Assembly: GCA_051658665.1 (NCBI GenBank) | Contig: JBOFNA010000045.1 | Coordinates: 1-39,855, forward strand | DNA from: Oscillospiraceae bacterium | GTDB taxonomy: Bacteria; Bacillota; Clostridia; Oscillospirales; Ruminococcaceae | Direction: 5' to 3' | DNA length: 39,855 bases | In this document: in pieces, positions 1,979-37,755 of the stretch | Position numbering within the stretch: the stretch's first letter is position 1 | How the letters are laid out: each line of letters opens with the position of its first letter | The notes under the pieces: model-generated | Seen by the model: only the letters and a program-made list of their open reading frames with translations | The model's database searches: none | Told to the model about the DNA's origin: nothing | Program-made: the position numbers and the translations under genes

Positions 1979-2410
1979 ATGGAACACCAAATAAATATAT
2001 TTGAAATACTAAGACAAAGATTTTACTTTCCCAAAAAACATAAAATAAAATTATTTGAATGTTTTAGTGGAATTGGTTGTCAACGTATGGGGTTAGAAAG
2101 AATAACCAACAATTTTGAAGTTGTTGGCTATAGTGAGATTGATAAATATGCTATCCAATCGTATCAAACAATGCACAATGATGATAAATGCTTTGGTAGC
2201 ATAACAGATATAAAAGGCAGTGATTTACCTGAAATAGATGTCTTGACTTATTCATTTCCTTGTACAGATTTATCAAAAGCCGGGCAACAAAAAGGCATGG
2301 ATAAGAACACTAGAAGCGGGTTAATTTATGAAGTTTTAAGAATAATTAAAGAAACAAAAATAAATGGTAATATGCCTAAAGTCTTGATTATGGAGAATGT
2401 AGTGGACTAA
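1979..2410 (+). CDS. DNA (cytosine-5)-methyltransferase, N-terminal fragment (motifs I-VI), ends at an in-frame TAA
   Basis: Motif I FECFSGIGCQ, motif IV SFPCTDLS (catalytic Cys), motif VI IMENV. The stop at 2408-2410 is in the same frame as ORF 2483-3265. Confidence 0.85.
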   Translation: MEHQINIFEILRQRFYFPKKHKIKLFECFSGIGCQRMGLERITNNFEVVGYSEIDKYAIQSYQTMHNDDKCFGSITDIKGSDLPEIDVLTYSFPCTDLSKAGQQKGMDKNTRSGLIYEVLRIIKETKINGNMPKVLIMENVVD

Positions 2411-2482
2411 GTCCACACAAAGTTTGTAAATCAATTTAACGAGATACAACAAGAACTAGCAGAACTAGGTTATAGCAACTAT

Positions 2483-3265
2483 GTGCAAACTTTAAACGCT
2501 AAAAATTATGGTGTTGCACAAAATAGAGACAGAGTATTCATGGTATCTATTTTAGGGGATTATTATTATGAGTTTCCAAAACCATTTACTCTTGAAAAAA
2601 GATTAAAAGATTACTTATTGCCAATTGAAGATGTTGAAGAAAAATACTATTTGAGTGATAAAGCTAAAATGTGTTTTAGTGATATGACAGATAGAAATGG
2701 GCTAGTGCGTGGAGATAGATTTAACCCTGTAAAATTAGATGAAACAGATCAAAAAATTGCTACTTGCATTACTACAAGAGAAAGTAATGTTGCAACTAGT
2801 AATTACATCATAATCAATGAAGATGATAGGTATGGCATTGCCATACCTGAGGACACAAAAAAGGGTTATGCAGTTGCACAAGAGGGAGACGGAGTTTATT
2901 TAAATAGACCACATCAAAAAAGAGGTGTGGTGCAAGAAAGTATGGTTCAAACTCTTAAAACTTACCCTGATGTTGGAGTGGTGGTTAATCATAATGTTAA
3001 AAACATTAACAGTGAAGAAAATATTTTTAGCACTTTGGGCACTAATTGTGGAAGTAGTACAAGCGCTGGTGGTGGAGTAGTTAAAACAGATTTGGCAATC
3101 AGAAAACTAACGCCTTTAGAATGTTGGCGACTAATGGGAATTGATGATGAATATTTTTACAAAGCTCAAAGCGTTTGTAGCAATGCACAATTATATAAAC
3201 AAGCAGGTAACGGTATTGTAGTTGATGTAATGGAACAAATATTCAAACAAATGATAGAAGATTAG
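2483..3265 (+). CDS. DNA (cytosine-5)-methyltransferase, C-terminal fragment (motif VIII, long TRD, motifs IX-X)
   Basis: Motif VIII QNRDRVFMV, motif IX RKLTPLECWRLMG, motif X YKQAGNGIVV. It is in the same reading frame as 1979-2410. The first in-frame start is GTG 2483, which has a weak SD. Confidence 0.8.
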   Translation: MQTLNAKNYGVAQNRDRVFMVSILGDYYYEFPKPFTLEKRLKDYLLPIEDVEEKYYLSDKAKMCFSDMTDRNGLVRGDRFNPVKLDETDQKIATCITTRESNVATSNYIIINEDDRYGIAIPEDTKKGYAVAQEGDGVYLNRPHQKRGVVQESMVQTLKTYPDVGVVVNHNVKNINSEENIFSTLGTNCGSSTSAGGGVVKTDLAIRKLTPLECWRLMGIDDEYFYKAQSVCSNAQLYKQAGNGIVVDVMEQIFKQMIED

Positions 3266-3283
3266 TTCACATTGTGTTCACTG

Positions 3284-3312
3284 TTGACACTTTAAATTAA
3301 GTGTGGTATACT
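3284..3312 (+). promoter_or_regulatory. near-consensus extended -10 sigma-A promoter
   Basis: TTGACA(3284-3289), 17-nt spacer, TG(3304-3305) then n, TATACT(3307-3312). Expected TSS is near 3319. Confidence 0.7.
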
Positions 3313-3318
3313 TTAGAA

Positions 3319-3838
3319 GTAGCAAACAAAAACAAAATCATTCATCCCCTTGAAACACGATTTAGTTGAGTTTGCTGCAAACTTTCTTTTTTAAACCTTA
3401 TAGCGGAGTTTAACCGCTTATCAAACGTACCGTTAAGATACCTAAGAGGACTTGAGGGAGCAGATGTAAACTGCTAAATTAAATACACTCATTACTGGTT
3501 TGAAACCGGAAAAGGGACATAAAAAAATAGGTTAAGCCTGCTCCCAAAAGGTTGTTTATAAAGCTTTCCAACTGGTACACTGACAACAAAAGCTTAGATA
3601 TTAATGAGATTTGCAAGAGGAGTAATTACCTACCTGCAACAGGGCAATGGAGCTTAGACAACTCCTAAGGCTTATTAATTGAAATCCATGTTATAAGACT
3701 GATAGCAAGTGTCTAAACAAAGCTATAGCAATAAAAGAGGCGTGGGAGAGTTGTTAAACAGTTACAAGACCTTACAACACTTAAAGAGGTAACCCACGAG
3801 GGTTCACAACTAAACTTAACGAAAGTTGAGTTTTTTTG
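3319..3838 (+). ncRNA. candidate large (~520 nt) structured non-coding RNA, class unknown (ROOL/GOLLD-like context)
   Basis: No + strand ORF longer than 17 codons. Bounded by a consensus promoter and a terminator. Local G+C is about 40% in a 60-nt sample versus about 28% in a nearby coding sample. Several perfect helices are visible, for example 3456-3463/3538-3545, 3561-3567/3589-3595 and 3654-3660/3710-3716. Confidence 0.5.
3808..3838 (+). terminator. intrinsic terminator ending the non-coding transcript
   Basis: Stem AACTAAACTT(3808-3817)/AAGTTGAGTT(3823-3832) with one A.G mismatch, loop AACGA, and a run of 7 T (3831-3837). Confidence 0.6.
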
Positions 3839-3845
3839 TTTATAT

Positions 3846-3874
3846 TTGACATAACTTATCGTAGATGTTACAAT
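3846..3874 (+). promoter_or_regulatory. near-consensus extended -10 promoter of the HNH/terminase/structural operon
   Basis: TTGACA(3846-3851), 17-nt spacer, TG(3866-3867) then n, TACAAT(3869-3874). Confidence 0.65.
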
Positions 3875-3895
3875 ACCTTTAAAGAGGTGGTAGTA

Positions 3896-4231
3896 GTGGC
3901 ACAAAAGAATGGAATACGGGAAACAGGTTTTTACAAAAGTAAAGCGTGGAAGAACACATCTCGAAAAACATTTAACAAACATTTAGGGATATGTCAAATG
4001 TGTGGCAAAATAATAGGCGATGCAAGGTACGTAGCCGACCACATAACGGAATTAAACACGAATAACTATCACGATCAAACTTTAGCGTATGGCGAATACA
4101 ATTTGCAACTGTTATGTTTACCATGCCATAATAAAAAAACATTTACTGATACAACTACCGCTGAAGAAGATAATGGCAAATTAAGAGATAACGATATAGA
4201 AAGGTTGAGAAAAAAATGGCAAAAAAAATAA
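3896..4231 (+). CDS. HNH homing-type endonuclease associated with cos packaging
   Basis: CQMCGK...ADHI...LQLLCLPCHNKKT (HNH/CCHH). The GTG start at 3896 follows SD AAAGAGGTGG. The ORF-track extension back to 3836 would cover the promoter. The gene lies immediately upstream of TerS. Confidence 0.8.
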   Translation: MAQKNGIRETGFYKSKAWKNTSRKTFNKHLGICQMCGKIIGDARYVADHITELNTNNYHDQTLAYGEYNLQLLCLPCHNKKTFTDTTTAEEDNGKLRDNDIERLRKKWQKK

Positions 4232-23672: not shown

Positions 23673-23754
23673 TTTAAATAAGAACTCCTTTATAATTAGT
23701 TTAGGTAGCAATAATTAGCTATCAATTTAAATTAAAGAAAGGAGTTTTTATATT

Positions 23755-24369
23755 ATGAATTTAGACAGTGAAACACAAATTTTAGGTGGTGGTTACAGTA
23801 ATGGAGGTAGTGGAAATCTATTAGAGGGTTTAATCTTTGGAGCATTACTTAGTGGCAATGGTTTAGGTGGTAATCGTGGTGCAGTAGTAGCTGATGAAAC
23901 GTGCAATCAAACATTACAATTAATTCAAGCAGGTACAGCTAACACTAATCAAATATCACAAACTTTAGCAAATGGTTTTAGTGGTGTTCAAAATCGTTTT
24001 GACAGTGTGTCTAATGGTTTAGTTACTGGTTTTGCAGGAGTTAACAGCGCAGTTAATGAAGTTAAGAGTGCTATTTTAGAAAGTAAGTACGACACTGCTT
24101 TACAAATGTGCCAACAAACTAATATCCTTAGCACGCAAATGAATGCAGGCTTTCAAGGCATTAAAGACCAAATGAATTGCCAAGTGGTAAAAGATTTAGA
24201 GAGACAATTAGCAGTAGCAGAGAACGGTGGTCCAATTGTAAGAGCGGGTACTTTTGTACAAGCTAACCCTTGCCAAGATAATGCAAGAATAACAAATATT
24301 GAGCAAACAGTTATACAAGTAGGAAACGCATTAAGTGCTATTCAAGGTGCTTTAGTAACAGGTAAGTAG
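23755..24369 (+). CDS. glycine-zipper N-terminal / Gln-Asn-rich helical protein with 4 Cys, unknown function (cargo gene)
   Basis: N-terminus is GGGYSNGGSGNLLEGLIFGALLSGNGLGGNRG. Four spaced Cys residues are present. The gene has its own SD AAAGGAG and a following hairpin. Confidence 0.6.
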   Translation: MNLDSETQILGGGYSNGGSGNLLEGLIFGALLSGNGLGGNRGAVVADETCNQTLQLIQAGTANTNQISQTLANGFSGVQNRFDSVSNGLVTGFAGVNSAVNEVKSAILESKYDTALQMCQQTNILSTQMNAGFQGIKDQMNCQVVKDLERQLAVAENGGPIVRAGTFVQANPCQDNARITNIEQTVIQVGNALSAIQGALVTGK

Positions 24370-25045: not shown

Positions 25046-25077
25046 AAAAAGACTTCCTAATTAAAGGATGTCTTTTT
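25046..25077. terminator. bidirectional intrinsic terminator between the convergent late (+) and early (-) blocks
   Basis: AAAAAGACTTCC(25046-25057)/GGATGTCTTTTT(25066-25077) with one mismatch and loop TAATTAAA. An A run and a T run flank the stem. Confidence 0.7.
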
Positions 25078-25384
25078 AATTGATTTCTAATTGCATTTGT
25101 TCTGGAATGTAGTTGTTGTCATTTATTTTAATCACTAAATTAACCAACCACTTCTCAAGAGTATCTTCTAAAACGAAATCCCTTGTAGTTCCAACTATTG
25201 AACGTTCTATTTTTTCTCCTATTTTATATTTATAAACAGTCTCATCTACTCCAAACTCTAGTAAAACAAAGTTAGGTTTTATGGTCCTTCCTAATTCACT
25301 GATGTCAATATAATTATCTTTCAATTCTTTGAAAGCTCCATTTATTATAAAAGTTTTGCGTTCGTATTCATTAGCGTATTCCAT
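25076..25384 (-). CDS. hypothetical protein
   Basis: 102-aa ORF, last gene of the - strand block. Its start overlaps the upstream stop. Confidence 0.55.
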   Translation of the reverse strand: MEYANEYERKTFIINGAFKELKDNYIDISELGRTIKPNFVLLEFGVDETVYKYKIGEKIERSIVGTTRDFVLEDTLEKWLVNLVIKINDNNYIPEQMQLEIN

Positions 25385-25572
25385 TATTTAAACCCTATCC
25401 TTTCTTTGATTTCTTCGTCTGTTTCTTCATAATCATTATCAAAACAACCATGGTCTTCAGGATAATTCCCTAAATTGAAGCGGTGTTTTGCACACCAATA
25501 GCCAACGCCACAATTGGTTTCTTCAAACGCTTCACAGTCTAGACATTTTTTGATCTCCTTTTCACTTCCCAT
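25384..25572 (-). CDS. small Cys-rich acidic protein (possible zinc-binding)
   Basis: 62 aa with CLDC...C....WC...H...HGC spacing. Confidence 0.5.
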   Translation of the reverse strand: MGSEKEIKKCLDCEAFEETNCGVGYWCAKHRFNLGNYPEDHGCFDNDYEETDEEIKERIGFK

Positions 25573-25575
25573 TAT

Positions 25576-25791
25576 TTAATCTCCTCCTGTTGTTAAATAT
25601 CCGCTGCAATAATCATCTAATATATGAGTGTCAATACTCCCATTTTTTTCTACTACTAAGACTGTGTAATCATTGTAGCAATATTCTTTGAATTTCGGTT
25701 TACTATCAGTTCCAAAGAGTATAGCTAAAAGAATTAGCGTTATAATCGTTATTCCTCCTGTATTTACTATCGTTACTGCTTGTGGTTTCAT
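25576..25791 (-). CDS. small membrane protein
   Basis: One TM helix (GGITIITLILLAILFG). The ATG at 25791 lies 8 nt after SD AAGGAG. Confidence 0.5.
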   Translation of the reverse strand: MKPQAVTIVNTGGITIITLILLAILFGTDSKPKFKEYCYNDYTVLVVEKNGSIDTHILDDYCSGYLTTGGD

Positions 25792-25793
25792 TA

Positions 25794-26156
25794 TCATTTC
25801 TCCTTTCCTTGTGTTATTCTAAACCTTATTTCTCTTATTTCAAAATTGACTACACTATCAACAGGCACAAAACAGATTTCCAAAGCAGATAAGTTATCAA
25901 CGTTGTCATATATTATCTGATTAATAAGCTTGATTATAGCTCCTTTATTGATTATTTGGTTATTAGGTATATCAACATACACTTCAAGCCTTGTAGCTGC
26001 TCTTAAATCGTTTTTAAAAGGTTTATTCTTGCATAGCGCTTTAATATCTCGGTTGCCACTATTTAGATCCTTGGGTTTGCCATTTAGGTTATAACAATCT
26101 TCATATATTGGTATTTTCCAACACTCCAAAATATAAGTTTTTATAATTTGTTCCAT
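25794..26156 (-). CDS. hypothetical protein
   Basis: 120-aa ORF in the operon frame context. Confidence 0.55.
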   Translation of the reverse strand: MEQIIKTYILECWKIPIYEDCYNLNGKPKDLNSGNRDIKALCKNKPFKNDLRAATRLEVYVDIPNNQIINKGAIIKLINQIIYDNVDNLSALEICFVPVDSVVNFEIREIRFRITQGKEK

Positions 26157-26165
26157 ATTGTATTC

Positions 26166-26813
26166 CTATTCTATCCCCTTTGCTAATTTAAATAATATAA
26201 TTACTTCTATTGTTATTGGGAAGTTCCTGTTTTTGATGTACCATTCATTTGAATATTCTCGGGGAAGTCTTATATAATCAATTCTCACATCGTTACTATC
26301 GAAATATAAATAAAACTTAATCTCTTCTTTATCTTCCCAATTCGGCAACCAACCATTATTATAATCTGCAATTATTTTTAGCAGTTTAACCTCGGCTTCT
26401 TGGCGTTCAATTTCTTTTAAGGCTTCTTCTTCTGTTAAAAAACAGTTGCCAATTTCCCTTTTCCTTAAATCGGTAGGCGATGAAGTCCACACCTTGAAAT
26501 GAATTATCCCAATGTTAGAAAGATAGTAATAATAATCTCCGCTTTCCAACTCCCACACGCTCTTTTTAACTCTAGGGTCTTCAAGTCCCCACAATGCAAT
26601 TGCTTTGTCTAACGTGTCATAGTCTTCATTTTCCACGCCAAATATATGGTTATGACGCTCAAACAAGTAGCCATATGTTTTGCCTGATTTTTTTTCAAAG
26701 CATATAGTGTCTATATTATCATTATTTATCAACAATCTATACCTGTTATAGTTATCGTATTCATTTTTAGGTATAAGTTTAAACTCATATTCAATATTTA
26801 TAGTATTTTTCAT
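26166..26813 (-). CDS. hypothetical protein
   Basis: ATG 26813 is preceded by GAGGA at 8 nt. The ORF-track start at 26834 has no SD. Confidence 0.55.
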   Translation of the reverse strand: MKNTINIEYEFKLIPKNEYDNYNRYRLLINNDNIDTICFEKKSGKTYGYLFERHNHIFGVENEDYDTLDKAIALWGLEDPRVKKSVWELESGDYYYYLSNIGIIHFKVWTSSPTDLRKREIGNCFLTEEEALKEIERQEAEVKLLKIIADYNNGWLPNWEDKEEIKFYLYFDSNDVRIDYIRLPREYSNEWYIKNRNFPITIEVIILFKLAKGIE

Positions 26814-26814
26814 T

Positions 26815-27081
26815 TTATTTATCCTCGCTTTCATCTTGGTATATATTACCTTTTACATCTTGATTATCTTGAAATAAATTATATTCAAATGTTTGATTTA
26901 AATCACCCTCAAAATCCGATAAATCTAGGTTTGAAATATCAATATTACCTTTTGTGTTGGTAAATAACAGTTTTACAAGTTCTGTTTTAGAATAAACTTC
27001 TTCTGGATTAATCATATTGATTACTTCTTGTCCCTTTACTCCTGTTACTGTTACGTCCTTATTAAAATCTAATGTTTTCAT
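26815..27081 (-). CDS. hypothetical acidic protein
   Basis: ATG 27081 follows SD AAAGGAG. Confidence 0.55.
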   Translation of the reverse strand: MKTLDFNKDVTVTGVKGQEVINMINPEEVYSKTELVKLLFTNTKGNIDISNLDLSDFEGDLNQTFEYNLFQDNQDVKGNIYQDESEDK

Positions 27082-27108
27082 TTTAATCACTCCTTTTGTT
27101 TTGTTGTT

Positions 27109-27372
27109 TTAAAACTCTCTTTTTACTCTGCTAATTAGATCATCATTTAAATTGACTTCTATGCCTCTACAATAATTCCTTACGTGAATAATCTTATTGC
27201 CTACACTTTCAAAGTAACCTTTCGGCATTTTTAAAAGGTCTGATAAATTGATATACTCTTTTCTAAAATCTGCCCCTCCAAATATTGGTGTTTCAAAATA
27301 TATTCTAGTGTTTTCATCTATGTAATCAAAATCATCATATCCTAATTTTTTTAAAAAATCTTCAACTTTCAT
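27109..27372 (-). CDS. hypothetical protein
   Basis: 87 aa, SD AAAGGGG. Confidence 0.55.
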   Translation of the reverse strand: MKVEDFLKKLGYDDFDYIDENTRIYFETPIFGGADFRKEYINLSDLLKMPKGYFESVGNKIIHVRNYCRGIEVNLNDDLISRVKREF

Positions 27373-27393
27373 AATTCAAGCCCCTTTCTTTTT

Positions 27394-27717
27394 TTAGTAA
27401 GTTACTGTTCTAACTCCTAATACTGCTTCCAAATATTCACTGTACTCTAATCTTTCTAAAACCTTAAAGATTTTATTATACACACTCCTCGCATTAACAG
27501 TATTAAACGCTTTAAAACAGTTGTTTTTAAATTGTTTATCTTCTTTTAATAATTTTTTTACATCTTTAATATTAAGTACTTCTATACATTCAAACTCCCT
27601 TAATATTAGATTAGCTTCTGTTTTTTGCATTTGCTTATACAGTTTTAAATCTATGTCCTTCCAGTAATGATAGTAAGCATTACATTCTCCTAAATCAGTA
27701 CATATAATTTCTTGCAT
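27394..27717 (-). CDS. hypothetical protein
   Basis: 107 aa, SD AAAGGGGG. Confidence 0.55.
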   Translation of the reverse strand: MQEIICTDLGECNAYYHYWKDIDLKLYKQMQKTEANLILREFECIEVLNIKDVKKLLKEDKQFKNNCFKAFNTVNARSVYNKIFKVLERLEYSEYLEAVLGVRTVTY

Positions 27718-27734
27718 AATTTAAAAACCCCCTT

Positions 27735-28580
27735 TTAAAATAATTTTTGCTGTATGTTTTGGTAATCAACACCTAATACATCATAACTTTCTTTAAAATA
27801 TTTTATAATAAATTTTCTTTGCGTATCATTTTTTAGTAACATAAGATTTAATTCTATTTGGTTCTTTGGAGCATATGGACAACCACAACAACCAGTTCTT
27901 GTAACATAGCTGTATACACTCGGTATAGGTATGCTATATTTATCATAAATATTTTTTAATAAATTATCGCTTAAGTCGTAAATAGGTGTGAATGTACCAT
28001 TTTTACTGAAACAACTTTTATATGCTTTCTTCCTGGTTAGGCTCTCGCCTGATCTAACACCTAGGATAGCTTTGCGATTAGTTTTTTTCTCATATGTTTT
28101 AAGAGGTTCTTTTTTAAAGAATGCACAACATTTTTCACTAACTTTATGCAGTTTACCACTTAAAGTTAATTCACTTGCTTTTTTATTAAGATTATACCAT
28201 GACTTACTATCTCTATTTATGAACGGCAATACACTTTTTCCTCTAGCTCCATTTTGGTAATAATATATTTTTTGGTCTTGATTTTTACTGAAACAAGGAA
28301 TCCCATATTTTTCTTTTACTTCCATGGGCTTCAACTTAGGATATACTACAACATCACTATAAGTTAATATCCTATCTCTTATTTCGGGGTGTTCCAAAAA
28401 AGTGTTTGCCCCTACAATTTCAATATCGTACCTCTTTAAATAACTTCTGATAAACCACCTCAGAAAATGACTATCTTTACCACCACTATAACTTAAATAA
28501 TATTTGTTAATTGGTAATTTATCAAATCTGCTTTTTAAATCAATAAGATATAATTCAACATCAAAGAAATCATTGTCCAT
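27735..28580 (-). CDS. PAPS-reductase-like PP-loop ATP pyrophosphatase family protein
   Basis: PP-loop SYSGGKDS near the N-terminus and a C-terminal Cys cluster TRTGCCGCPY. Size is 281 aa. Confidence 0.75.
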   Translation of the reverse strand: MDNDFFDVELYLIDLKSRFDKLPINKYYLSYSGGKDSHFLRWFIRSYLKRYDIEIVGANTFLEHPEIRDRILTYSDVVVYPKLKPMEVKEKYGIPCFSKNQDQKIYYYQNGARGKSVLPFINRDSKSWYNLNKKASELTLSGKLHKVSEKCCAFFKKEPLKTYEKKTNRKAILGVRSGESLTRKKAYKSCFSKNGTFTPIYDLSDNLLKNIYDKYSIPIPSVYSYVTRTGCCGCPYAPKNQIELNLMLLKNDTQRKFIIKYFKESYDVLGVDYQNIQQKLF

Positions 28581-29033
28581 CTAAAATGGTAACTCATCAT
28601 CTAATACATCTAGCCCTGCTAATATGTTTGAATCGCTACTAACTACATTCGGCATAGCATAACTTTTGCTATTTTGAATACTGTTAGGTGTTGTATTGCT
28701 AATAGCGTTAGGTACTGCGTTTTGATCGCCTTTGAACTCTAGGTATCCTATGTTGGTGCATATAATTTCTGTTTTATAAACTTTATTATTGTTGTTATCC
28801 ATATAATTTGAGGTCTGTATTCTACCCTCAACGCTAATTAAAGAGCCTTTGTTGCAATACAACGCTAAGTTCTCTGCTTGCTTTTCCCATACTTGACAAT
28901 TGATAAAGTCGGCTTCACCTTTTTTAAATTGATTATTAATTGCCAATATAAAATTAGCCACACTTTTACCAGTATTAGTTTTTTTGATTTCAACATCTTT
29001 AGTCAGTCGACCAACTCCACAAAAATTATTCAT
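28581..29033 (-). CDS. ssb: single-stranded DNA-binding protein
   Basis: OB-fold N-terminus MNNFCGVGRLTKDVEIKKT..G..VANF.LA and an acidic C-terminal tail DDELPF. Confidence 0.9.
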   Translation of the reverse strand: MNNFCGVGRLTKDVEIKKTNTGKSVANFILAINNQFKKGEADFINCQVWEKQAENLALYCNKGSLISVEGRIQTSNYMDNNNNKVYKTEIICTNIGYLEFKGDQNAVPNAISNTTPNSIQNSKSYAMPNVVSSDSNILAGLDVLDDELPF

Positions 29034-29334
29034 CTTCATCAACTCCTTTTATTTTGTAAACTATAATTATATTTTGTTCATCATCTTGATATATTTCTGT
29101 TGCTATGAAGTTTGAAAGGTCAATTGGCTCTTCGCCCGCTATAAACTTATAGTATGAATGCGGTGCTTCATTGTTTATAAATATACCATTTATGAGTTCG
29201 GCAGCACTTATAACTTCATCGTTTCTTCTAAAGAAGTATGTACAACTTTCAATATCTAGCAATTTTATTAAAGAGGGTAGATTAACCTCTTCAATATTGC
29301 TGCTTATAAAACCTAATTTATTTTTGATGTTCAT
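29026..29334 (-). CDS. hypothetical protein
   Basis: ATG 29334 follows SD GAGGAGG. Confidence 0.5.
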   Translation of the reverse strand: MNIKNKLGFISSNIEEVNLPSLIKLLDIESCTYFFRRNDEVISAAELINGIFINNEAPHSYYKFIAGEEPIDLSNFIATEIYQDDEQNIIIVYKIKGVDEDE

Positions 29335-29593
29335 TATTTTCCTCCTCACTATCTGTTTCAATTTGCTTTATTAATTCTCGGATAACCTCGTTTTTAAGAT
29401 GATTGATAGCAGTGCCTGTGCAGTCCCAAGGTTCTAAGTCATATAACTCACTGTCAAGAGACGCCATAATTTTGTTATCAATAATTTCAATTTTAATATT
29501 ATCAAGTGTAAACTTGAAACCCTCTTCCTTATGTATTTCAACTAAAAGATTATAATTTTCAAATCTTTTGTATTCCTCTAATGTTAATCTCAT
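29318..29593 (-). CDS. hypothetical acidic protein
   Basis: 91 aa, SD AAGGGAG. Confidence 0.5.
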   Translation of the reverse strand: MRLTLEEYKRFENYNLLVEIHKEEGFKFTLDNIKIEIIDNKIMASLDSELYDLEPWDCTGTAINHLKNEVIRELIKQIETDSEEENNEHQK

Positions 29594-29820
29594 CTTTTAT
29601 TACTCCCTTTCTTAAATAAATATTTAGCTAACAATTTCCTTAAAAGAAAATTGTTTAATTCTCTTACGCAAGCACATATATCTTGAATAACGTAAGCTAC
29701 TGCAAAAAATGGAAGGCACGATAGCTCTATAATCTTTATCGGAAAATTGATTATTTTAAATATGTATACGATCGCCTTTACTTTTGCAACATCTTTTTTA
29801 TCTATTACTTTTATATTCAT
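29590..29820 (-). CDS. small hydrophobic protein
   Basis: ATG 29820 follows SD AAAGGAG. The product contains a hydrophobic stretch. Confidence 0.45.
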   Translation of the reverse strand: MNIKVIDKKDVAKVKAIVYIFKIINFPIKIIELSCLPFFAVAYVIQDICACVRELNNFLLRKLLAKYLFKKGSNKR

Positions 29821-29842
29821 ATTAATACTCCTTTGTTTAATT

Positions 29843-30037
29843 TTAATTACCTGTATCAAAAAGTCTTACGTTGTTGATGTAAAGGTATATTTGTTCAATT
29901 GCCTCTTCAGAATTAATATACTCCTCTTGTTTTTCTTTGCTCCATTTTTTAAAATCGTTTGGCACTTCAATTTCTGTTTCAAGTTCAGTCCAATGGTTAT
30001 TAGAGCTTATTTGTATATACGCATTAACGTTTATCAT
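29843..30037 (-). CDS. hypothetical protein
   Basis: 64 aa. Its translation initiation region is identical to that of the next gene (21-bp repeat). Confidence 0.5.
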   Translation of the reverse strand: MINVNAYIQISSNNHWTELETEIEVPNDFKKWSKEKQEEYINSEEAIEQIYLYINNVRLFDTGN

Positions 30038-30153
30038 ATTAATACTCCTTTGTTTTTTTGTTTGTTGATTTCAATATTTATTTCTAAGACAACCAAATTA
30101 TACTATAACTGGACATTACCTTTGTGTCTATTTAAAGTTTATTGTTGGTGGTG

Positions 30154-30576
30154 TTATTTTAACAATTCCTTTTGTTCTTCAGTCAATTCTTCCCATTCGC
30201 AAAATTTCATTTCCACGCCTTGCCATTCCTTATTGATGCAATGGCTGTGTATTATACTAGGGATATGCTTGTTGTTATCATTTTCTATAAGCCCTACACC
30301 TGTTTTGTTTCTAACACTCATTGGTTGTAAAGTGTCTAAGATATTCTTTAATAACAGATTATCAACATCAAAACCATTTCTAACACTATGCCATTTCGCT
30401 ATGCAAACACAAGGCGTAGGTATATCCTGAACCTTTTGTTCCATGATTTGTCTTGCTATTTCTTTTTGAATCTTCTTTTTTTGACTAGCACCAACCGCCC
30501 AACCACTGCGATTAGCAGAAGTTAGTTGGTTTAGGTTGAAATGCTTTAATTCTAATTTTATTTTAAAAGTTATCAT
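30154..30576 (-). CDS. rusA: RusA-like Holliday junction resolvase
   Basis: FDVDNLLLKNILDTL and GLIENDN match the RusA acidic catalytic motifs (D.DN..K...D.L ... DD). Size is 140 aa, downstream of RecT. Confidence 0.6.
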   Translation of the reverse strand: MITFKIKLELKHFNLNQLTSANRSGWAVGASQKKKIQKEIARQIMEQKVQDIPTPCVCIAKWHSVRNGFDVDNLLLKNILDTLQPMSVRNKTGVGLIENDNNKHIPSIIHSHCINKEWQGVEMKFCEWEELTEEQKELLK

Positions 30577-30579
30577 AAA

Positions 30580-30798
30580 TTACAGGTTCTCGATTTCTTT
30601 TATTATTTTTTTTATTTTTTCCGCAATATTGTCAAGTTGGGTGTTGCTATAACTTTTCAAAATACTAACAACATCATCTAGATCATCTACCGCATAGTCT
30701 AGTGAAAAATTTATAAACTCTTCCAAACTAATTGTTTGGGCGTTTTCAGTTAATGCTATTTGTTCGTTGTCGTATTGGTCAAATGTTTTAGCATCCAT
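30580..30798 (-). CDS. small acidic hypothetical protein
   Basis: 72 aa. Its start is coupled to the RecT stop (TAATG). Confidence 0.5.
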   Translation of the reverse strand: MDAKTFDQYDNEQIALTENAQTISLEEFINFSLDYAVDDLDDVVSILKSYSNTQLDNIAEKIKKIIKEIENL

Positions 30799-31712
30799 TA
30801 CATCGGCATTTCATCAACTACTTGTTGAGTTATTTCTCCTGTTTCTTGGTCTACCACTTGGTTTGTTTTAACTTCTTCTTGTACTTGAACTGCTTCTTCT
30901 AGTATACTTTGAGTAATATCGTTGTCGATATATTCTTTTTTATTCTCTTGCACATCAATTACTGCTTGGTCGTTTTCATATGCTTGTTGCATTTCAATAC
31001 TTAGAATACCATATTTACTAAGTATTTGTCTTAGCATAGTCTTTTGTGCCATAGAGTCAAAATCTTTATACCAAAATGAACTTAACTTCCATAAGTCTTT
31101 TTGAGGATATGTCCCCTCATTTTTTTTCTTATAGTTGTCAACGTTGAACGCCATAGAGAATGTGTCGGCGTGCTTTAACATCTTAGTCTTAGTCCAATAC
31201 ATAGTCTTTTTAAAACCATTTATTGTTTCGATATAAGCTAAGTATCCGACCACTTCTCCACTCTCTTCTAAATCATCACTAAGCACGATTTCTTCTTCAA
31301 CCATATTCCAACTAATAAATTGGTTAGCATAAATAGGTACTGCATTGATTTTTTTATACTGCCCACTTCTAATTGCAAGTTGCACATAACCTTTCCAACC
31401 AATTTGAAACTGGGCATCTTTATTTCCAGTTTTATTATTTTTGAATGGGACAACATATGCGTGTCCAAAACTAGAATTTAAAGATAAATCTAACGATGTC
31501 GCAATGATAGCTGCACTCATTAAGCTTTTATTAGTACATTCAGCTAGTGCTGGATTGGCGTTTACTAATGCTACCATATTCGTTACAAATTTTTCTTTTC
31601 TTGATCCTAGCACTTGTTGTAGGTATCCCTCAACTGCTGGAGCTTTAAGGTAAGATGTTATCCCACCTTGTTGTACTTGGTTATTATTTTTTACTAATGA
31701 ATTATTTGCCAT
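30798..31712 (-). CDS. recT: RecT-family single-strand annealing recombinase
   Basis: SAAIIATSLDLSLNSSFGHAYVVPF...FQIGWKGYVQLAIRSGQYKKI is typical of RecT. Confidence 0.85.
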   Translation of the reverse strand: MANNSLVKNNNQVQQGGITSYLKAPAVEGYLQQVLGSRKEKFVTNMVALVNANPALAECTNKSLMSAAIIATSLDLSLNSSFGHAYVVPFKNNKTGNKDAQFQIGWKGYVQLAIRSGQYKKINAVPIYANQFISWNMVEEEIVLSDDLEESGEVVGYLAYIETINGFKKTMYWTKTKMLKHADTFSMAFNVDNYKKKNEGTYPQKDLWKLSSFWYKDFDSMAQKTMLRQILSKYGILSIEMQQAYENDQAVIDVQENKKEYIDNDITQSILEEAVQVQEEVKTNQVVDQETGEITQQVVDEMPM

Positions 31713-31714
31713 TG

Positions 31715-32899
31715 TTATTGGTCTCCTTTAAAATTGTATAATACTTTACCAATCTTTATATCAGTAATTGTTTCTCCAACTACTGCTAGTATTTCTTCAA
31801 TGTTTCTATAAGCATCAGGGTGTTCATCTAAAGTGTTATTGTTAATTGTTTTAGAGTAAACATTAGCCATTTGCCTTTTCATATCTTCAAGCGTTAAGTC
31901 TTCTTTTGCTTTTCTTCTTGACTTAACTCTACCTGCACCGTGTGGACAACCACACAACCAGTCTTCGTTTCCTTTACCAACACCTAAAATGACACCGTCC
32001 CTCATATTTATAGGGATGATAACCTCTTTGCCTTTTTTGGCGTTTATAGCACCTTTATAAATAGTGTTAGTAGCTTTATCAAAGTAATTATGAGGTACGC
32101 TTAACACATACGATAAGTCGTTTTCATCTATACCTAAACCATTTACTATATCCACCAACATTTCCTCTCTATTAAGCTTTGCATAAATTAAGGCAATGTC
32201 CATATCGTACAAATAATTTTCTAGGTTTTTTCCTTTTAAGTAATCTTGTTTAATTATAAAATTTTCTTTTTTTATTACTTTAAGCTTTTCTTCCCGTTCT
32301 TCTTTTGGATATTTTGCTTTGATTTCATCAATAGCTTTCTTCATTCCTTTTTCATCAAAGTAACTAGACAAAAATGTCTTGGTGTAATAATCGCATATGG
32401 TAGCACCTAAGTTTCTACTACCACTATGAACAACTAATAAATAAAAGTCGTCAAATTCATTTAATTCAATGAAGTGATTGCCTCCACCTAAAGTCCCTAA
32501 AGAGTGTTGCCAACGATCAATCATCTTGCTTGTTGTCGGCATTTTCAATCCTTTTAAAATATGCTTATATTCTCTACCTGAATAAGTTAATGTTTTTCTT
32601 ACTTGATTTCCAGTAGGTATACTCTTTGATATAACATCGTGCAATTTGTCTAAATCGATTTGCCAACTTTTATCAATTTTAAACGCGCTCATACCGCAAC
32701 CAATATCAACTCCGACCATTTCAGGTATAATTCTATTAGGTTTTAATTTACCAACAAATCCAATTGGCACACTTTTTCCTATATGTGTATCAGGCATTAA
32801 ATGTGCAGTGTCGCATATAGACAACACTTCTTCAGTAATACTATCTACTACATTTTTTTCACAGTTAATAGTGTGGGTTACTACTTCTTTTCTTTCCAA
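31715..32899 (-). CDS. rtcB: RtcB-family 3'-phosphate/5'-OH RNA ligase
   Basis: MPDTHIG, GVDIGCGM, GGGNHFIEL, HSGSRNLG and PHGAGR motifs appear in the canonical order. TTG start immediately follows the upstream stop. Confidence 0.85.
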   Translation of the reverse strand: MERKEVVTHTINCEKNVVDSITEEVLSICDTAHLMPDTHIGKSVPIGFVGKLKPNRIIPEMVGVDIGCGMSAFKIDKSWQIDLDKLHDVISKSIPTGNQVRKTLTYSGREYKHILKGLKMPTTSKMIDRWQHSLGTLGGGNHFIELNEFDDFYLLVVHSGSRNLGATICDYYTKTFLSSYFDEKGMKKAIDEIKAKYPKEEREEKLKVIKKENFIIKQDYLKGKNLENYLYDMDIALIYAKLNREEMLVDIVNGLGIDENDLSYVLSVPHNYFDKATNTIYKGAINAKKGKEVIIPINMRDGVILGVGKGNEDWLCGCPHGAGRVKSRRKAKEDLTLEDMKRQMANVYSKTINNNTLDEHPDAYRNIEEILAVVGETITDIKIGKVLYNFKGDQ

Positions 32900-33925
32900 T
32901 TACACCTCAACTCCATTCTTAATTCTTTTTGTTACTTCTTTTTTTAATCCACTGCTTTTAATATATTCATTTAAATCCAAAACCTGTGAAAAAGTACCTT
33001 CAATGTTGAAATGTATTTCCCAAACATCGTTGTTAGTAGCAGGGTTTGTATCAGATTGTGTTTGCATTCTTTGCTCTTCTTGCTTAATGTGATTATATCC
33101 TAGAGTACCAAACGTTTGTTGTACTGCTTCAAGTGTTCCATTATCAACTTTTTTTAGTGCGTTTTCTTCTGCTTGAATTCTTAAAATTTCAATTGTTTCT
33201 AATTGTTTTGTTACTTCTTCTTCCACTAAAGGTATCAACTCACTAAACGTTTTTCCTTGTTCGTACAAATAAATAAACATTTCATCACTAATATTAAACA
33301 TTGGGTTGGTTGCATTCTTGCTTGCCACTAGGTTTTTAATGCCCTGAATGTCATTGTTAAAGACATCTTGTTGCACCTTTAAACTTTCGATTTGCGCAAC
33401 CACTAAATCTTTGATTGTTTTAGTAAGTTGCCCGGTTGCAGTGAATGAACCTTTATTGTAATATTTTTCTTCATACACAAATAACTTAATATATTTTTCT
33501 TCTAAACTATCAAACATTGGCTTGATCAAATTGTAGAACTTTGTCTTGCGTTCTTTTAATTCTTCTTGTGCATATACACTTGTTTGTTCAGTTATTTTTT
33601 CTACTATTGGTTTAATCAAATTAATGATTTCTTTGAACTGGTTTTCCATTTCTTTAATAGGTGTTTCCATTTCTTTTTTTATTACTTTGCGTTGGTCATC
33701 AAACGTTTTGATTAACCCTTTTAATTTTTTTTCATCTTCTAATGCAGTTGGTAGATTAATCTCATCAACTACATAATCTTGATACTTTGATATTGATTGT
33801 TCAATGTATTTTTTTACATCTTCAATATTAGTAACTACTTCGGCTTGTTTAATAGGTTGAACTACTAAGTCCACGCTTTCAACCTCTTCAACTATAGTAG
33901 CTTGTACATCTATAATATCTTGCAT
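32900..33925 (-). CDS. coiled-coil recombination-module protein (DUF1351-like)
   Basis: 341 aa, highly charged and helical. It sits between the exonuclease and RecT, as DUF1351 proteins do in Gram-positive phages. Confidence 0.45.
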   Translation of the reverse strand: MQDIIDVQATIVEEVESVDLVVQPIKQAEVVTNIEDVKKYIEQSISKYQDYVVDEINLPTALEDEKKLKGLIKTFDDQRKVIKKEMETPIKEMENQFKEIINLIKPIVEKITEQTSVYAQEELKERKTKFYNLIKPMFDSLEEKYIKLFVYEEKYYNKGSFTATGQLTKTIKDLVVAQIESLKVQQDVFNNDIQGIKNLVASKNATNPMFNISDEMFIYLYEQGKTFSELIPLVEEEVTKQLETIEILRIQAEENALKKVDNGTLEAVQQTFGTLGYNHIKQEEQRMQTQSDTNPATNNDVWEIHFNIEGTFSQVLDLNEYIKSSGLKKEVTKRIKNGVEV

Positions 33926-33937
33926 ATTAATTCTCCT

Positions 33938-34567
33938 TTATATTTCTATTTTCATATCAATTTTAGGTGGTTCTACATCATTTTGAACCAAATCCCAAAA
34001 CTTTTTTTCTTCTTCTACCAATAAATCTATGCTTTCTTGGTGTTCACTTCTTTCAAAGTGATAAATCTTTAACTCTTGCCTTTCACTCCAACTAAAGCCT
34101 ATCCACACATACAATACATAGAAATCCAGTTGTAACGTTTCCATATAATGCAAAACTTGGCAATAATAAGTGTTTGGCACTTGGTCTTTCCAATCATCAA
34201 GCATTACCTTATTTTGAATAGTGGTAGTTTTTATTTCTAGTCCACCTTTTCTTGATGTTCCTACTTCTTCAAGTATTCCATCCACTTCGGCGTGCATAAA
34301 CTCATTTTTAGGGTGTTTATAACGCTCTTTAGACACTTTAACAATATACTTGTCTTTATGTGTCTCTTTGAACAAATCAACCAGTATAGGCTCTAAAGCA
34401 ACGCCTAAATCAACAGCTCTATTTGAAACATCATCAGGTTTAATCTTGTGTTTCTTTTCAAGCCATAAATCGTGAACTGTTTTATACTTATTCACTTTCA
34501 TTATCACACCAGCATCACTACCACCAATGCCTTTAGCACGTTGATTATGCCAATCTTTAGTCTTCAT
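33938..34567 (-). CDS. YqaJ-like (lambda Exo-type PD-(D/E)XK) recombination exonuclease
   Basis: KGIGGSDAGVIM...TVHDLWLEKK and GGLEIKTT motifs. Confidence 0.8.
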   Translation of the reverse strand: MKTKDWHNQRAKGIGGSDAGVIMKVNKYKTVHDLWLEKKHKIKPDDVSNRAVDLGVALEPILVDLFKETHKDKYIVKVSKERYKHPKNEFMHAEVDGILEEVGTSRKGGLEIKTTTIQNKVMLDDWKDQVPNTYYCQVLHYMETLQLDFYVLYVWIGFSWSERQELKIYHFERSEHQESIDLLVEEEKKFWDLVQNDVEPPKIDMKIEI

Positions 34568-34715
34568 CTATACGTATTCCAACACAATCAAGTTTGTACG
34601 TGATTCCAACTATATTAATTATTTGCTGAGACATTCTTTGTAAATCAAAATCTTGATCAACTTTGATAATTATTTCAATTTTAACTTGTTTTTTTTCTTT
34701 TTTCTTTTTTTTCAT
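34557..34715 (-). CDS. 52-aa Lys-rich small protein; not in the ORF track
   Basis: Hand translation: MKKKKKEKKQVKIEIIIKVDQDFDLQRMSQQIINIVGITYKLDCVGIRIDED. SD is GGAG. The 3' end overlaps the exonuclease start by 11 nt. Confidence 0.45.
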   Translation of the reverse strand: MKKKKKEKKQVKIEIIIKVDQDFDLQRMSQQIINIVGITYKLDCVGIRIDED

Positions 34716-34717
34716 TA

Positions 34718-35020
34718 TTAATCTCCTTTCTTAGGGTTTTTTCTCATTAAAAAGGCTTGGTAATTGATTGTGATTGCAAATATCGCGCTATAAATCACAA
34801 CTAATTCATCTGTGTTTATTAGATTAAACCAAAAATAACCAAAGAAAATACAAGACAACAATACCAAATCTAAAATATTTTTTTTGATAAAATTAAAGTA
34901 ATAATATCCAAAAAACACAAAAGAAAATATCAATGATTTATTTTTTTTGTTCAGACTATACAAGGTTAGCAAAACATTTACGATCAAATTGCTAAATAAA
35001 AGCAAGTAAATTATTTTCAT
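34718..35020 (-). CDS. multi-pass membrane protein (possible superinfection exclusion)
   Basis: Three to four hydrophobic helices. ATG 35020 follows SD AAGGAGGGG. Confidence 0.55.
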   Translation of the reverse strand: MKIIYLLLFSNLIVNVLLTLYSLNKKNKSLIFSFVFFGYYYFNFIKKNILDLVLLSCIFFGYFWFNLINTDELVVIYSAIFAITINYQAFLMRKNPKKGD

Positions 35021-35033
35021 TTCTTTCCCCTCC

Positions 35034-35387
35034 TTATTTTTTTTCTGAAAATTCGGTATCAAATTTCATGCAATTAGCGGGTGCGATATACTCTTCATCT
35101 AAAGCCTTTTTAAAATAGTTTCCAAATCGCATTGGTAGCCCTAGCCTTGCCGGCTTGTATCGTTCAATTTCGTAAGTTTCATAGATTTCCAATATATCCA
35201 TTTTTATTTTATTGCGTTGAAATAAGTTCAAAGATATTTGATGAGCTCGCTCGATAACATCAATTAATATTTCGGTAAATCCTTCTTTTCTCTGGTCTTT
35301 TCCCCATAAAATTATATTGTTCCATTTTGAGGCTTTATTTTCTGCGCCATTACTTATTTCTGTTGCGTATTTTATATATTCATTCAT
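35034..35387 (-). CDS. hypothetical protein
   Basis: 117 aa, SD GAGGAAA. Confidence 0.55.
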   Translation of the reverse strand: MNEYIKYATEISNGAENKASKWNNIILWGKDQRKEGFTEILIDVIERAHQISLNLFQRNKIKMDILEIYETYEIERYKPARLGLPMRFGNYFKKALDEEYIAPANCMKFDTEFSEKK

Positions 35388-35402
35388 TTTTTTCCTCGAT
35401 TA

Positions 35403-35735
35403 TCATAGGTATGCACCGCTTAAATACGTTAAAAAATCGGTTCTCAATTCTTCGATCTTTAATTCTAACTCTTTAATCTCATTTTTATAAAGTGTTATTA
35501 TTGCTTCTTTTTCTTTACCATGTGTGCAGGGTGTGCGAGTTATTATATCCTCACAACTCATAGTACTATATTCAATATATATTCTTGCATTTTCATAACG
35601 TTCTAACGTGTTGATAATATCTTTCAATTCTTCTGTTTGCTTAAGTGTTTCATTACAGTTATTGATAAATGTTTCAAAAAATTTCATTAATTCACACTCC
35701 CAAACTCTGATAGTAATTTCATCATTTTCTGCCAT
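35403..35735 (-). CDS. hypothetical protein
   Basis: 110 aa. There is no SD adjacent to the ATG. The nearest AAAGG is about 30 nt upstream, across a hairpin. Confidence 0.5.
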   Translation of the reverse strand: MAENDEITIRVWECELMKFFETFINNCNETLKQTEELKDIINTLERYENARIYIEYSTMSCEDIITRTPCTHGKEKEAIITLYKNEIKELELKIEELRTDFLTYLSGAYL

Positions 35736-35747
35736 TTTTTGCTAGTT

Positions 35748-35780
35748 GGTAAGACTGCTAAATCTACCTTTACTTTTTTT
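35748..35780. other. leader hairpin module f
   Basis: GGTA(A)GA-CTGCTAAA-TCTACC (35748-35768) followed on + by TTTACTTTTTTT. Confidence 0.6.
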
Positions 35781-35802
35781 ATATTTCCTAAATTATTTTT
35801 TT

Positions 35803-36135
35803 TCATTTTCTATTCTCCTTTTTTGGTATGTTTGACACTATTCTAGCATAAAAATCACTATCTTTAGCGCCTTTTTCTTTTTTTAATTTCTTGTTCTCTT
35901 CTTCTAAAATAACATTTTTTTCTATTAAAATATTATTTTCTAATGAGAGTTGTGTTATTTCTTTTTTTAATTCTGGATAAATACTTTTAAATTTCTCTAG
36001 TCGTTCCAATTCTTTAACTTTTTCTTTTTCCTTGATCAACTCTTGATTGGCTACCGCTGCAATTCTTTTAAAGTGCTTTGCTTCATTCTGAAGCTTTTCA
36101 TAATTTATTCTTTTTACAATCATTTTACAGTACAT
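35803..36135 (-). CDS. coiled-coil hypothetical protein (start uncertain: 36135 or 36123)
   Basis: Charged heptad-like sequence. The two ATGs at the ORF-track start have no SD. Confidence 0.45.
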   Translation of the reverse strand: MYCKMIVKRINYEKLQNEAKHFKRIAAVANQELIKEKEKVKELERLEKFKSIYPELKKEITQLSLENNILIEKNVILEEENKKLKKEKGAKDSDFYARIVSNIPKKENRK

Positions 36136-36412
36136 CCTTTCCTGTTTTTTGAGCATAAACATATTCTAAACAAGCGCCTTTAGAATATTTCCAACCCTTT
36201 AAAAAATAGATAAAATCACAACAATCTATCATTTTGTAGCATATTTCCATATACTCATCATGACTAAAACCTTTAGGCAATACGCTAGGGTTCATAATCT
36301 TGCATTTAGGATACCTAAACTTGAGTTTTGCTACCCCTAAGATAAACTTAATTCTAAAACACTTCTCTCCAGTAATTGGACCTGCAACATAAATCTTTTT
36401 TCTTTTCTTCAC
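36125..36412 (-). CDS. DUF4406 / nucleoside 2-deoxyribosyltransferase-like small protein
   Basis: KIYVAGPITG at the N-terminus and GW..S.G...E...A...G at the C-terminus, 95 aa. GTG start follows SD AAAGGA. Confidence 0.6.
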   Translation of the reverse strand: MKKRKKIYVAGPITGEKCFRIKFILGVAKLKFRYPKCKIMNPSVLPKGFSHDEYMEICYKMIDCCDFIYFLKGWKYSKGACLEYVYAQKTGKDVL

Positions 36413-36454
36413 TATATCAATCCTTTCTTTTTTATTTTTTTCTGCTATTTAGCA

Positions 36455-36527
36455 TTTGTTAAGGCTCTAGCAAGAAAGGTAGCTAATGCCTTAACAAACA
36501 CTAAGTAACGTGTTTGTTTTTTTATGC
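36455..36527. other. structured leader upstream of the DUF4406 gene: two mutually exclusive hairpins plus an anti-SD
   Basis: The 11-bp stem 36455-36465/36488-36498 overlaps the 9-bp stem 36493-36501/36510-36518. AAGAAAGG (36472-36479) is complementary to the SD region CCTTTCTT (36422-36429). Confidence 0.6.
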
Positions 36528-36531
36528 GTTT

Positions 36532-36540
36532 ATTATACCA
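36532..36540 (-). promoter_or_regulatory. extended -10 promoter element (TGGTATAAT) upstream of the DUF4406 leader
   Basis: The - strand reads TGGTATAAT. The -35 is poor. Confidence 0.45.
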
Positions 36541-36552
36541 TAATTACGCTGC

Positions 36553-36870
36553 TTAATAAGGTTCGTTTTGTGTTTTTTTACTCCTGTCAATAATTTTATC
36601 AAGTCTTAGAGAATGTTTTGGAAACTCTTTAATCTCAATAAATATGGTTGGATTATCTATCCAGTTATAATATTCAATACAAATGGTGTCCCAATCGTCA
36701 TTATCAAGTCCATATATATTTTTGAAAGGTCCACGTTGCTTAATTTCCTCTGTTCTTTCTAAAAAACGAGTTTCATCAGATATTTTATAATACTCTAGCC
36801 CCTCTATTGTATTCACTTCTAATAATATTGGATATTCTACACCTTTTACTAACGTTTCAATCGTATTCAT
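36553..36870 (-). CDS. hypothetical protein
   Basis: 105 aa, SD AAAGGAG. Confidence 0.55.
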   Translation of the reverse strand: MNTIETLVKGVEYPILLEVNTIEGLEYYKISDETRFLERTEEIKQRGPFKNIYGLDNDDWDTICIEYYNWIDNPTIFIEIKEFPKHSLRLDKIIDRSKKTQNEPY

Positions 36871-36872
36871 AA

Positions 36873-37427
36873 TTATTCTCCTTTTTTTATTTTACTTACT
36901 ATTATACCTGTTTCATTTGTATTTTTTTCAATAGCTATAAAAGCTGTTTCTGTGCAAAAATAGTTACAATCTTTACCTAATATTTTTAATAAGATTGATA
37001 GTTTTTTATATTCGATGAAATTATTTTTTTTAGATATAGATGTATAAAAGTCTTTTTTAGTTTTAACATAGTAGCTCAGTTCATCAAAAGTTGTACTTAA
37101 AGGTTGTTTTATTTTAAGAATTGGATCAACATATTGAGGCATTTCCGGGTAATTATCTTCTAGTGTTAGATTTTTATATCCTAAATTATCATTTAAAATA
37201 AAAACACTATAACTATCTGTAAAATAATTTTTTCCTTGAATTACACCACATCCTTTAAGATGAGAATGTATCTCTTTGATATTCTTCATAAAAGAGGTCA
37301 TAGCTTGTATTCTGCTTTTACTATTCAATTTTAAAGCACTGTTTTTTCTTATTTCTTCTTCTAACAATAATATTAATTCATCATTTTTATTGTTTTTAAT
37401 CAATTCTAAATATTTTAATTCTTTCAT
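36873..37427 (-). CDS. hypothetical protein
   Basis: 184-aa ORF in the immediate-early block. Confidence 0.55.
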   Translation of the reverse strand: MKELKYLELIKNNKNDELILLLEEEIRKNSALKLNSKSRIQAMTSFMKNIKEIHSHLKGCGVIQGKNYFTDSYSVFILNDNLGYKNLTLEDNYPEMPQYVDPILKIKQPLSTTFDELSYYVKTKKDFYTSISKKNNFIEYKKLSILLKILGKDCNYFCTETAFIAIEKNTNETGIIVSKIKKGE

Positions 37428-37441
37428 ATTTAAAAAATCCT

Positions 37442-37739: not shown

Positions 37740-37755
37740 TATTTATTACCTATTT

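Follow-up and report, generated by a model that had tools for sequence, protein, structure and literature searches.

In phage lambda, the PR′-6S RNA-tR′ unit consists of a strong constitutive promoter placed before the late genes and a short untranslated, terminated RNA. In the lactococcal phage c2 (Ceduovirus), the replication origin (ori) is a non-coding stretch without an open reading frame (ORF) or ribosome-binding site (RBS) that lies between two co-directional promoters, PE1 and PE2, 360 bp apart, and PE1 makes an untranslated RNA, PE1-T, that is implicated in transcription-mediated initiation (PMC7150918). In phages of the 936 type, the middle genes are separated from the late genes by a long non-coding region that contains cos (PMC6105707). 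The large RNAs ROOL and GOLLD, which like OLE have models in Rfam, often occur near tRNA islands (PMC12286853), an association that is typical and not obligatory. Here we analyse a non-coding interval (positions 3266–3895, + strand) in contig JBOFNA010000045.1 from an Oscillospiraceae bacterium; the window is this whole contig of 39,855 nt, which belongs to a tailed phage and has a G+C content of 32.6%. The interval spans ~0.6 kb between the replication and packaging operons, just ahead of the packaging genes, and holds no credible ORF. It is probably copied into untranslated RNA, and we would file it with a known kind, the phage non-coding units between tandem promoters. Our leading, if still tentative, account is that it forms a stand-alone untranslated transcription unit of ~520 nt, a boundary module between the two operons.

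A pair of co-directional, near-consensus promoters flanks the non-coding body, as the original prediction had stated. The first, P1 (3284–3312, + strand; TTGACA-17-TGgTATACT), is an extended −10 promoter that keeps a perfect −35, a 17-bp spacer, the TG and five of the six −10 positions, giving an 11/12 match and a predicted start at ~3319. The second, P2 (3846–3874, + strand; TTGACA-17-TGtTACAAT), also matches at 11/12, lies 562 bp downstream of P1 and heads HNH-TerS-TerL. Genome-wide, three TTGACA-17-TGnTAnnnT sites reach 11/12, all of them intergenic; P1 and P2 are two of these and the third (39488–39460, minus strand) heads the early leftward operon, a distribution that supports the reading of the interval as a transcription unit. 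The same reading is supported by the stretch between the methylase stop (3265) and P1, in which no terminator was found.

Just 5′ of the P1 −35 are two GTTCAC direct repeats, 11 bp apart (3265–3281), whose reverse complement includes TGAACACA, a motif that recurs twice in the early-left control region. All three genome copies of TGAACACA fall in promoter regions, a post hoc observation in which the count itself (3 versus 1.74 expected) is not significant. The repeats are a possible operator, and TGAACACA is possibly an operator common to the early-left region and P1, perhaps for the Arc-like protein encoded at 205–354. The early-left control region itself (39232–39620, minus strand) has tandem TTGACA promoters at 39587 and 39488 and carries, besides TGAACACA, repeated GGACAyAwCTyGAACA motifs.

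At the far end of the interval, a terminator-like hairpin (3806–3839, + strand) is AU-rich, with a 9-bp stem (3812–3820/3825–3833), a GAAA tetraloop and a U7 tract (T run at 3831–3837), with 8 bp between its end and the P2 −35. Its predicted free energy (dG) is −11.8 and lies well below that of shuffled sequences (z-score (z) −4.1). The stem-loop and run of seven T first noticed here are therefore present; they do not pass a standard terminator scan, because the stem has only two G–C pairs, where an intrinsic terminator is expected to place a G+C-rich stem directly ahead of its U tract. Together these elements suggest how the module may work. P1, as a strong host sigma-A promoter of the early-left class, would most likely fire an RNA of ~520 nt, from ~3319 to ~3838, comprising a stable protective 5′-terminal hairpin, one modest domain (~100 nt) and a purine-rich body that is long and unstructured; this RNA would end at the AU-rich GAAA-loop terminator ahead of P2. 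The same terminator would also halt read-through from the upstream operon, which lacks a terminator of its own, so that HNH and the terminase genes would be driven from P2. The RNA could be an insulation by-product, a cis leader or a trans-acting early long non-coding RNA (lncRNA).

The interval lacks coding capacity. Each of its six frames contains TAA, TAG and TGA stops alike; an ORF could therefore not be recovered under an alternative genetic code, and this explanation was ruled out. The longest + strand ORFs, which start with TTG and GTG, run to 38 and 27 codons, rather than the 17 codons given earlier as the maximum; no start codon in the interval has a usable Shine–Dalgarno sequence (SD), which leaves no small peptide gene with a proper SD. 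A pseudogene remnant was also considered and rejected, since tblastn with the proteins of relatives and with the phage's own proteins found none. The G+C content of the interval is 36.5%, compared with a genome mean of 32.6% (standard deviation 3.6%); 12.5% of genome windows are equally G+C-rich, and the flanking coding DNA stands at 35.2% and 33.1%. The enrichment is thus milder than the ~40% against ~28% in neighbouring DNA that had been proposed. No long complementarity was found between the interval and the rest of the genome, and no antisense target stands out among 56 translation-initiation regions. The sequence is consistent with the original view of the locus as a non-coding promoter-to-terminator unit.

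The architecture has a precedent in the c2 transcript PE1-T between PE1 and PE2 (PMC7150918), which supports our account. Both loci are several-hundred-bp non-coding stretches without ORF or RBS at a gene-module boundary, both are flanked by two co-directional consensus sigma-A promoters of which the first yields an untranslated RNA (here a predicted one), and in both the non-coding body is G+C-richer than its flanks. They differ in promoter spacing (360 bp in c2, 562 bp here), in the genes that follow, which are early genes in c2 and HNH/terminase genes here, and in sequence, where there is no similarity; and the c2 region is the origin, whereas here a separate iteron-type candidate exists. 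This candidate (739–822) consists of 5.6 perfect tandem copies of the 15-nt unit TAGAAGAGATTAGAT inside the DnaD-like gene (354–1157) and is likely an iteron-type origin embedded in its own initiator gene.

These comparisons bear directly on the idea that the interval is itself a transcription-activated origin of the c2 type, in which the RNA from the first promoter would prime or activate replication. When the interval is held to the c2 layout, it shows the same arrangement (no ORF or RBS, two co-directional promoters on its flanks), and the replication module is its immediate upstream neighbour. An origin of this type would be expected to have a sequence of the c2, bIL67 or 923 ori type, and the interval has no similarity to the c2 ori. 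It also holds no iteron copies and no repeat arrays, and its promoters point into packaging genes rather than early genes. Given the missing c2 similarity, the DnaD-like proteins with iterons at 739–822 and the lack of iterons in the interval, an origin function is possible but not favoured, and we consider a c2-type origin here quite improbable. That an origin candidate is placed elsewhere instead speaks for the boundary module.

We then asked of the predicted RNA how much structure it carries. The minimum free energy of the 523-nt RNA gives z = −2.06 on the + strand (1 of 100 shuffles as stable) and −0.89 on the − strand, an asymmetry that agrees with transcription from P1. Among 75 equally long stretches that tile the sense strand of this genome without overlap, its fold ranks 9th at best, and a coding segment from the end of rtcB to the start of recT (31560–32082, minus strand) surpasses it with z = −4.9 and none of 100 shuffles as stable. 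Three elements beat shuffles. The 5′-terminal hairpin (3319–3378, + strand), with the closing stem GUAGCAAAC/GUUUGCUGC, begins at the predicted +1 of the P1 transcript and has a dG of −18.3 (z −4.24, 0 of 200 shuffles as stable). The domain of ~100 nt (3451–3550, + strand) is closed by GGGAGCAG/CUGCUCCC (3456–3463/3538–3545), includes an inner hairpin at 3495–3509 and has a dG of −24.4 (z −3.26, 0 of 200 shuffles); the third element is the terminator-like hairpin. Smaller + strand hairpins lie at 3402–3418 (GCGGA/CCGCU, dG −6.3, z −2.5) and 3791–3804 (AACCC-ACGA-GGGUU, dG −6.7, z −1.8). An alternative hairpin (3366–3393, + strand), GAGUUUG-CUG-CAAACUU followed by CUUUCUUUUUU, is not significant (dG −4.1, z −0.54) and is a possible weak early terminator or attenuator.

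Outside these elements the RNA is predicted to be largely open. Among 150-nt windows of the interval only 3318–3467 stands out (z −2.4), the middle 250 nt (3518–3767) fold no better than shuffles (z ~0, at or above the shuffle mean), and the purine-rich segment at 3551–3790 (+ strand) has structure not above shuffles, with z about 0 to +0.5. The complementarities listed in the original prediction, including 3319–3327/3370–3378, 3561–3567/3589–3595, TTAGACA 3654–3660 with TGTCTAA 3710–3716 and AGGAGT 3618–3623 with ACTCCT 3661–3666, are all present at the positions given; their frequency is no higher than in dinucleotide shuffles, as perfect inverted repeats of 6, 7, 8 and 9 nt number 70, 20, 3 and 0 in the interval and average 59.6, 16.4, 4.8 and 1.4 in the shuffled sequences.

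This distribution of structure weighs on the proposal that the locus encodes a large ornate structured RNA, either a divergent ROOL/GOLLD type or the founding member of a class that acts through its fold. The candidate resembles ROOL and GOLLD in being phage-encoded, non-coding, roughly 0.5–0.8 kb in scale and apparently stand-alone, with its own promoter and candidate terminator; its G+C content is slightly raised for an intergenic region, the + strand energy was equalled by only 1 of 100 shuffles, and two local elements are significant. A cmscan against Rfam 15, the search that had been suggested with ROOL, GOLLD and other large RNAs in mind, found nothing at the gathering score or at E ≤ 1 in the whole stretch, and nothing at E ≤ 10 with permissive filters in 3200–3950. 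Neither the ROOL covariance model, with its conserved multi-pseudoknot fold, nor the GOLLD model, with its conserved 3′ domain, is matched. Many GOLLD members exceed 800 nt (PMC12286853), and at ~520 nt the candidate RNA is shorter. ARAGORN found no tRNA or tmRNA genes in the 39.9-kb genome, so the candidate also differs from these families in having no neighbouring tRNA genes, as it does in lacking extensive structure. The helices occur at chance frequency, the middle of the RNA folds no better than shuffles, coding windows of the genome reach z = −4.9, and no homologue supports a family. Since the Rfam, tRNA, folding and inverted-repeat tests all came out against it, the ornate reading is unsupported and carries little probability; the inference of a ROOL/GOLLD-like RNA or a new ornate class is not upheld, and a lightly structured functional RNA is possible.

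Such a lightly structured RNA could still be functional in its own right, as an early phage lncRNA of ~520 nt and of an undescribed class, which we regard as rather unlikely. The 5′ hairpin would then stabilise the transcript, one domain would be folded, and the unstructured purine-rich body would be the acting part. This body contains four copies of the SD-like motif AAGAGG (3444, 3615, 3735 and 3784, the last three within 3551–3790), a number that places the interval in the top 1.4% of windows. Ribosomes, or an RNA-binding factor of the host or the phage, might be drawn to the body as a decoy or sponge; alternatively, it might govern the changeover to packaging-gene expression.

The AAGAGG copies also bear on a different reading, in which the interval is evolutionary debris: a spacer assembled from promoter-leader modules that were duplicated and then decayed, or else the remains of a gene long dead. 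P1 would then be a leftover duplicate of an early promoter and the RNA functionless. GTTANNANACCT has four genome copies where 0.53 are expected, three of them at 3432, 3761 and 3867, and together with AAGAGG it makes up two degenerate versions of the P2 −10/discriminator/SD module, at 3432–3451 and 3761–3790. Because these degenerate P2-module copies lie inside it, part of the spacer is suggested to have arisen by duplication. The unstructured body and the absence of homologues fit this picture as well. Selection is nevertheless indicated by P1 itself, whose −35, 17-bp spacer and TG are all intact alongside five of six −10 positions; phage genomes are compact, and the interval is one of only four ORF-free gaps of at least 150 nt in 39.9 kb; and no protein remnant was found. 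We hold debris to be an improbable explanation.

A further reading assigns P1 to the late genes. As a late-operon leader or processive-antitermination module, P1 would be the main late promoter, from which RNA polymerase reads through into HNH and the structural operon. This reading is modelled on lambda PR′-6S-tR′ or on HK022 put, and 5′ RNA elements or a phage factor would make RNA polymerase pass terminators. The interval directly precedes the genes for packaging and structure, its strong promoter is followed by a hairpin and U-tract within 75 nt and by a later weak terminator, and the tandem-promoter theme recurs at the early-left region (TTGACA at 39587 and 39488). Like lambda, the locus has a strong promoter just before the late genes and a predicted short untranslated, terminated RNA; unlike lambda, it has a second consensus promoter after the terminator, and neither a Q-like gene nor features of the qut type were identified. 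The position of P2 directly before HNH makes a P1 leader unnecessary. The early hairpin and U-tract are not significant as a terminator, and no late regulator, whether Q-like or of another kind, was found, with no family matches; the ORF at 1169–1849, considered for this role, was set aside as only weakly DnaD-like. A leader of this kind is judged unlikely.

Searches for related sequences were made at several levels. With blastn and megablast, no homologue of the interval was found in phage and plasmid records, and IMG/VR, JGI metagenomes and GTDB genomes, scanned with exact and gapped patterns, likewise gave none; six matches from one pattern scan were dismissed as chance. No homologous element is present at the loci of the relatives with 41% and 35% identical TerL or at 23 IMG/VR HNH loci. 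A 903-nt gap in L002/L003 was rejected as unrelated; it contains small ORFs and iterons.

Four considerations weigh against the boundary-module account. The terminator is weak by standard criteria, and P1 transcripts may run on into HNH as a long leader. There is no evident way in which a consensus P2 would be held silent early in infection. The degenerate P2 −10/leader copies inside the interval suggest partial duplication debris. Finally, no collection searched contains a homologue, and conservation and covariation are hence without support.

The position of the interval just ahead of the packaging genes also raises the question of cos, which the original prediction had suggested might overlap it. 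A cos or terminase recognition region of an HNH-type cos phage would be expected close to HNH-TerS-TerL, which lie directly downstream; the TerL belongs to the family found in such cos phages as sk1, phiSLT-like phages and B13, and 936-type phages place cos at a comparable position (PMC6105707; sk1 record). To place cos, we used a hallmark derived from six relatives, namely a G+C-rich end with an adjacent poly-C tract next to terS/HNH. In sk1, a C8 tract sits 48 nt inside the mapped cos end, whose sequence CACAAAGGACT agrees with the published one (PMC6105707), and in B13 a C7 tract lies 35 nt from the right end, beside the annotated 3′ overhang. Three further phages, phiSa2wa_st30, Athena and PhiSepi-HH1, carry C6–C7 tracts in the gap ahead of terS, and the relative with a 41% identical TerL (L024) has such a tract 5′ of HNH.

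In the present genome, the only run of at least six C (39799–39804) and the only run of at least six G (39841–39846) both lie within 57 nt of the right end of the contig, the most G+C-rich 20-mer is 39827–39846, and a C5 run is found at 33–37. Within 3266–3895, by comparison, there is no C run longer than four and no repeat array, so the hallmark is absent, and the contig is continuous across the interval. Because the poly-C/G-rich hallmark at the contig ends matches that of relatives with mapped ends, cos most likely lies there and the interval is most likely not cos; the suggested overlap is made unlikely, and we regard a cos function for the interval as very improbable. This placement agrees with the interval being a transcription unit. 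It leaves ~3.9 kb, made up of the replication module and the spacer, between the contig-end cos and HNH/TerS, unlike the poly-C relatives. The locus resembles that of sk1 and other 936-type phages (Skunavirus) in other respects: in both, a rightward replication/middle module is set apart from the packaging genes by a long stretch free of ORFs, in which upstream transcripts would end at a terminator (here a candidate one), and the TerL families are related. The sk1 region, however, holds cos, the C8 tract and AATCT repeats and has no consensus promoters, whereas the region described here has two consensus promoters and no repeats, with the poly-C/G-rich hallmark at the contig ends instead. Separately, the sk1 non-coding region 5′ of cos contains GTGGGTTCGATTCCTAC (record 27551–27567), which has the look of a tRNA T-arm and was found only as a terminator-like match.

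Upstream of the interval, the early/replication operon on the + strand encodes the Arc-like protein (205–354), the DnaD-like helicase loader (354–1157) and a second, weakly DnaD-like ORF (1169–1849), followed by a C5 cytosine methylase (1979–3265), the last gene before the interval. Downstream, a short leader with the SD AAAGAGGTGG precedes the HNH gene (leader and gene, 3881–4231, + strand), which starts with GTG at 3896 and ends at 4231 (PF01844, phrog_144). Beyond HNH, the + strand carries a 105-aa ORF in the TerS position, TerL and genes for portal, protease, capsid, tail and endolysin, and the structural operon downstream of the interval extends over ~20 kb. The minus strand (25076–39231) encodes SSB, RecT, a YqaJ exonuclease, a RusA-like protein and an RtcB ligase. 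A scan of ~40 ORFs turned up neither an integrase nor a repressor. From the position of the poly-C hallmark, we infer that the contig is the complete, linear, cos-ended genome of an apparently virulent siphophage. Its closest TerL is 41% identical among 5.8 billion proteins and ~30% identical in cultured phages, and the same protein search found no close relatives of HNH or ORF226. On these comparisons the phage appears to be a previously unseen singleton.

Several features of the genome deserve separate mention. The methylase gene is broken into ORFs of 143 and 260 aa by one in-frame TAA (2408–2410), directly after the ENV motif (…LIMENVVD*VHTKF…) and one base change from TTA (Leu); a nonsense mutation or pseudogene, a sequencing error and read-through are the alternatives. 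Within the same gene, the local fold at 2718–2867 (+ strand) is unusually stable (dG −38, z −4.85) and includes a perfect 9-bp GC-containing hairpin, GGUAUGGCA/UGCCAUACC. The RtcB RNA ligase (31715–32899, minus strand; PF01139, E = 2e-57) lies between DUF1351 and RecT in a genome that has no tRNA genes and may serve as an RNA-repair counter-defence. In the gap before the gene at 23755–24369, a long hairpin of very high stability, with a U run behind it (23678–23751, + strand), gives its 150-nt window a dG of −40.7 (z −8.1). The 3′ arm of the hairpin includes the SD of the downstream gene, AAAGGAG, and the element may serve in termination, in translational control or in both.

The interval is a genuine and somewhat unusual intergenic module that adds no new ornate RNA class. 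The analysis has two more solid by-products: a poly-C hallmark that extends across the terminase lineage puts cos most likely at the contig ends, and the DnaD-like gene holds a likely iteron origin. If P1 does make an abundant, untranslated RNA of 0.5 kb, the locus would be a further case, comparable to c2 PE1-T, of a top-strength promoter spent on a non-coding boundary product. It would then offer a tractable entry to the timing of packaging-gene expression in a sigma-A-only, virulent phage of the Firmicutes type.

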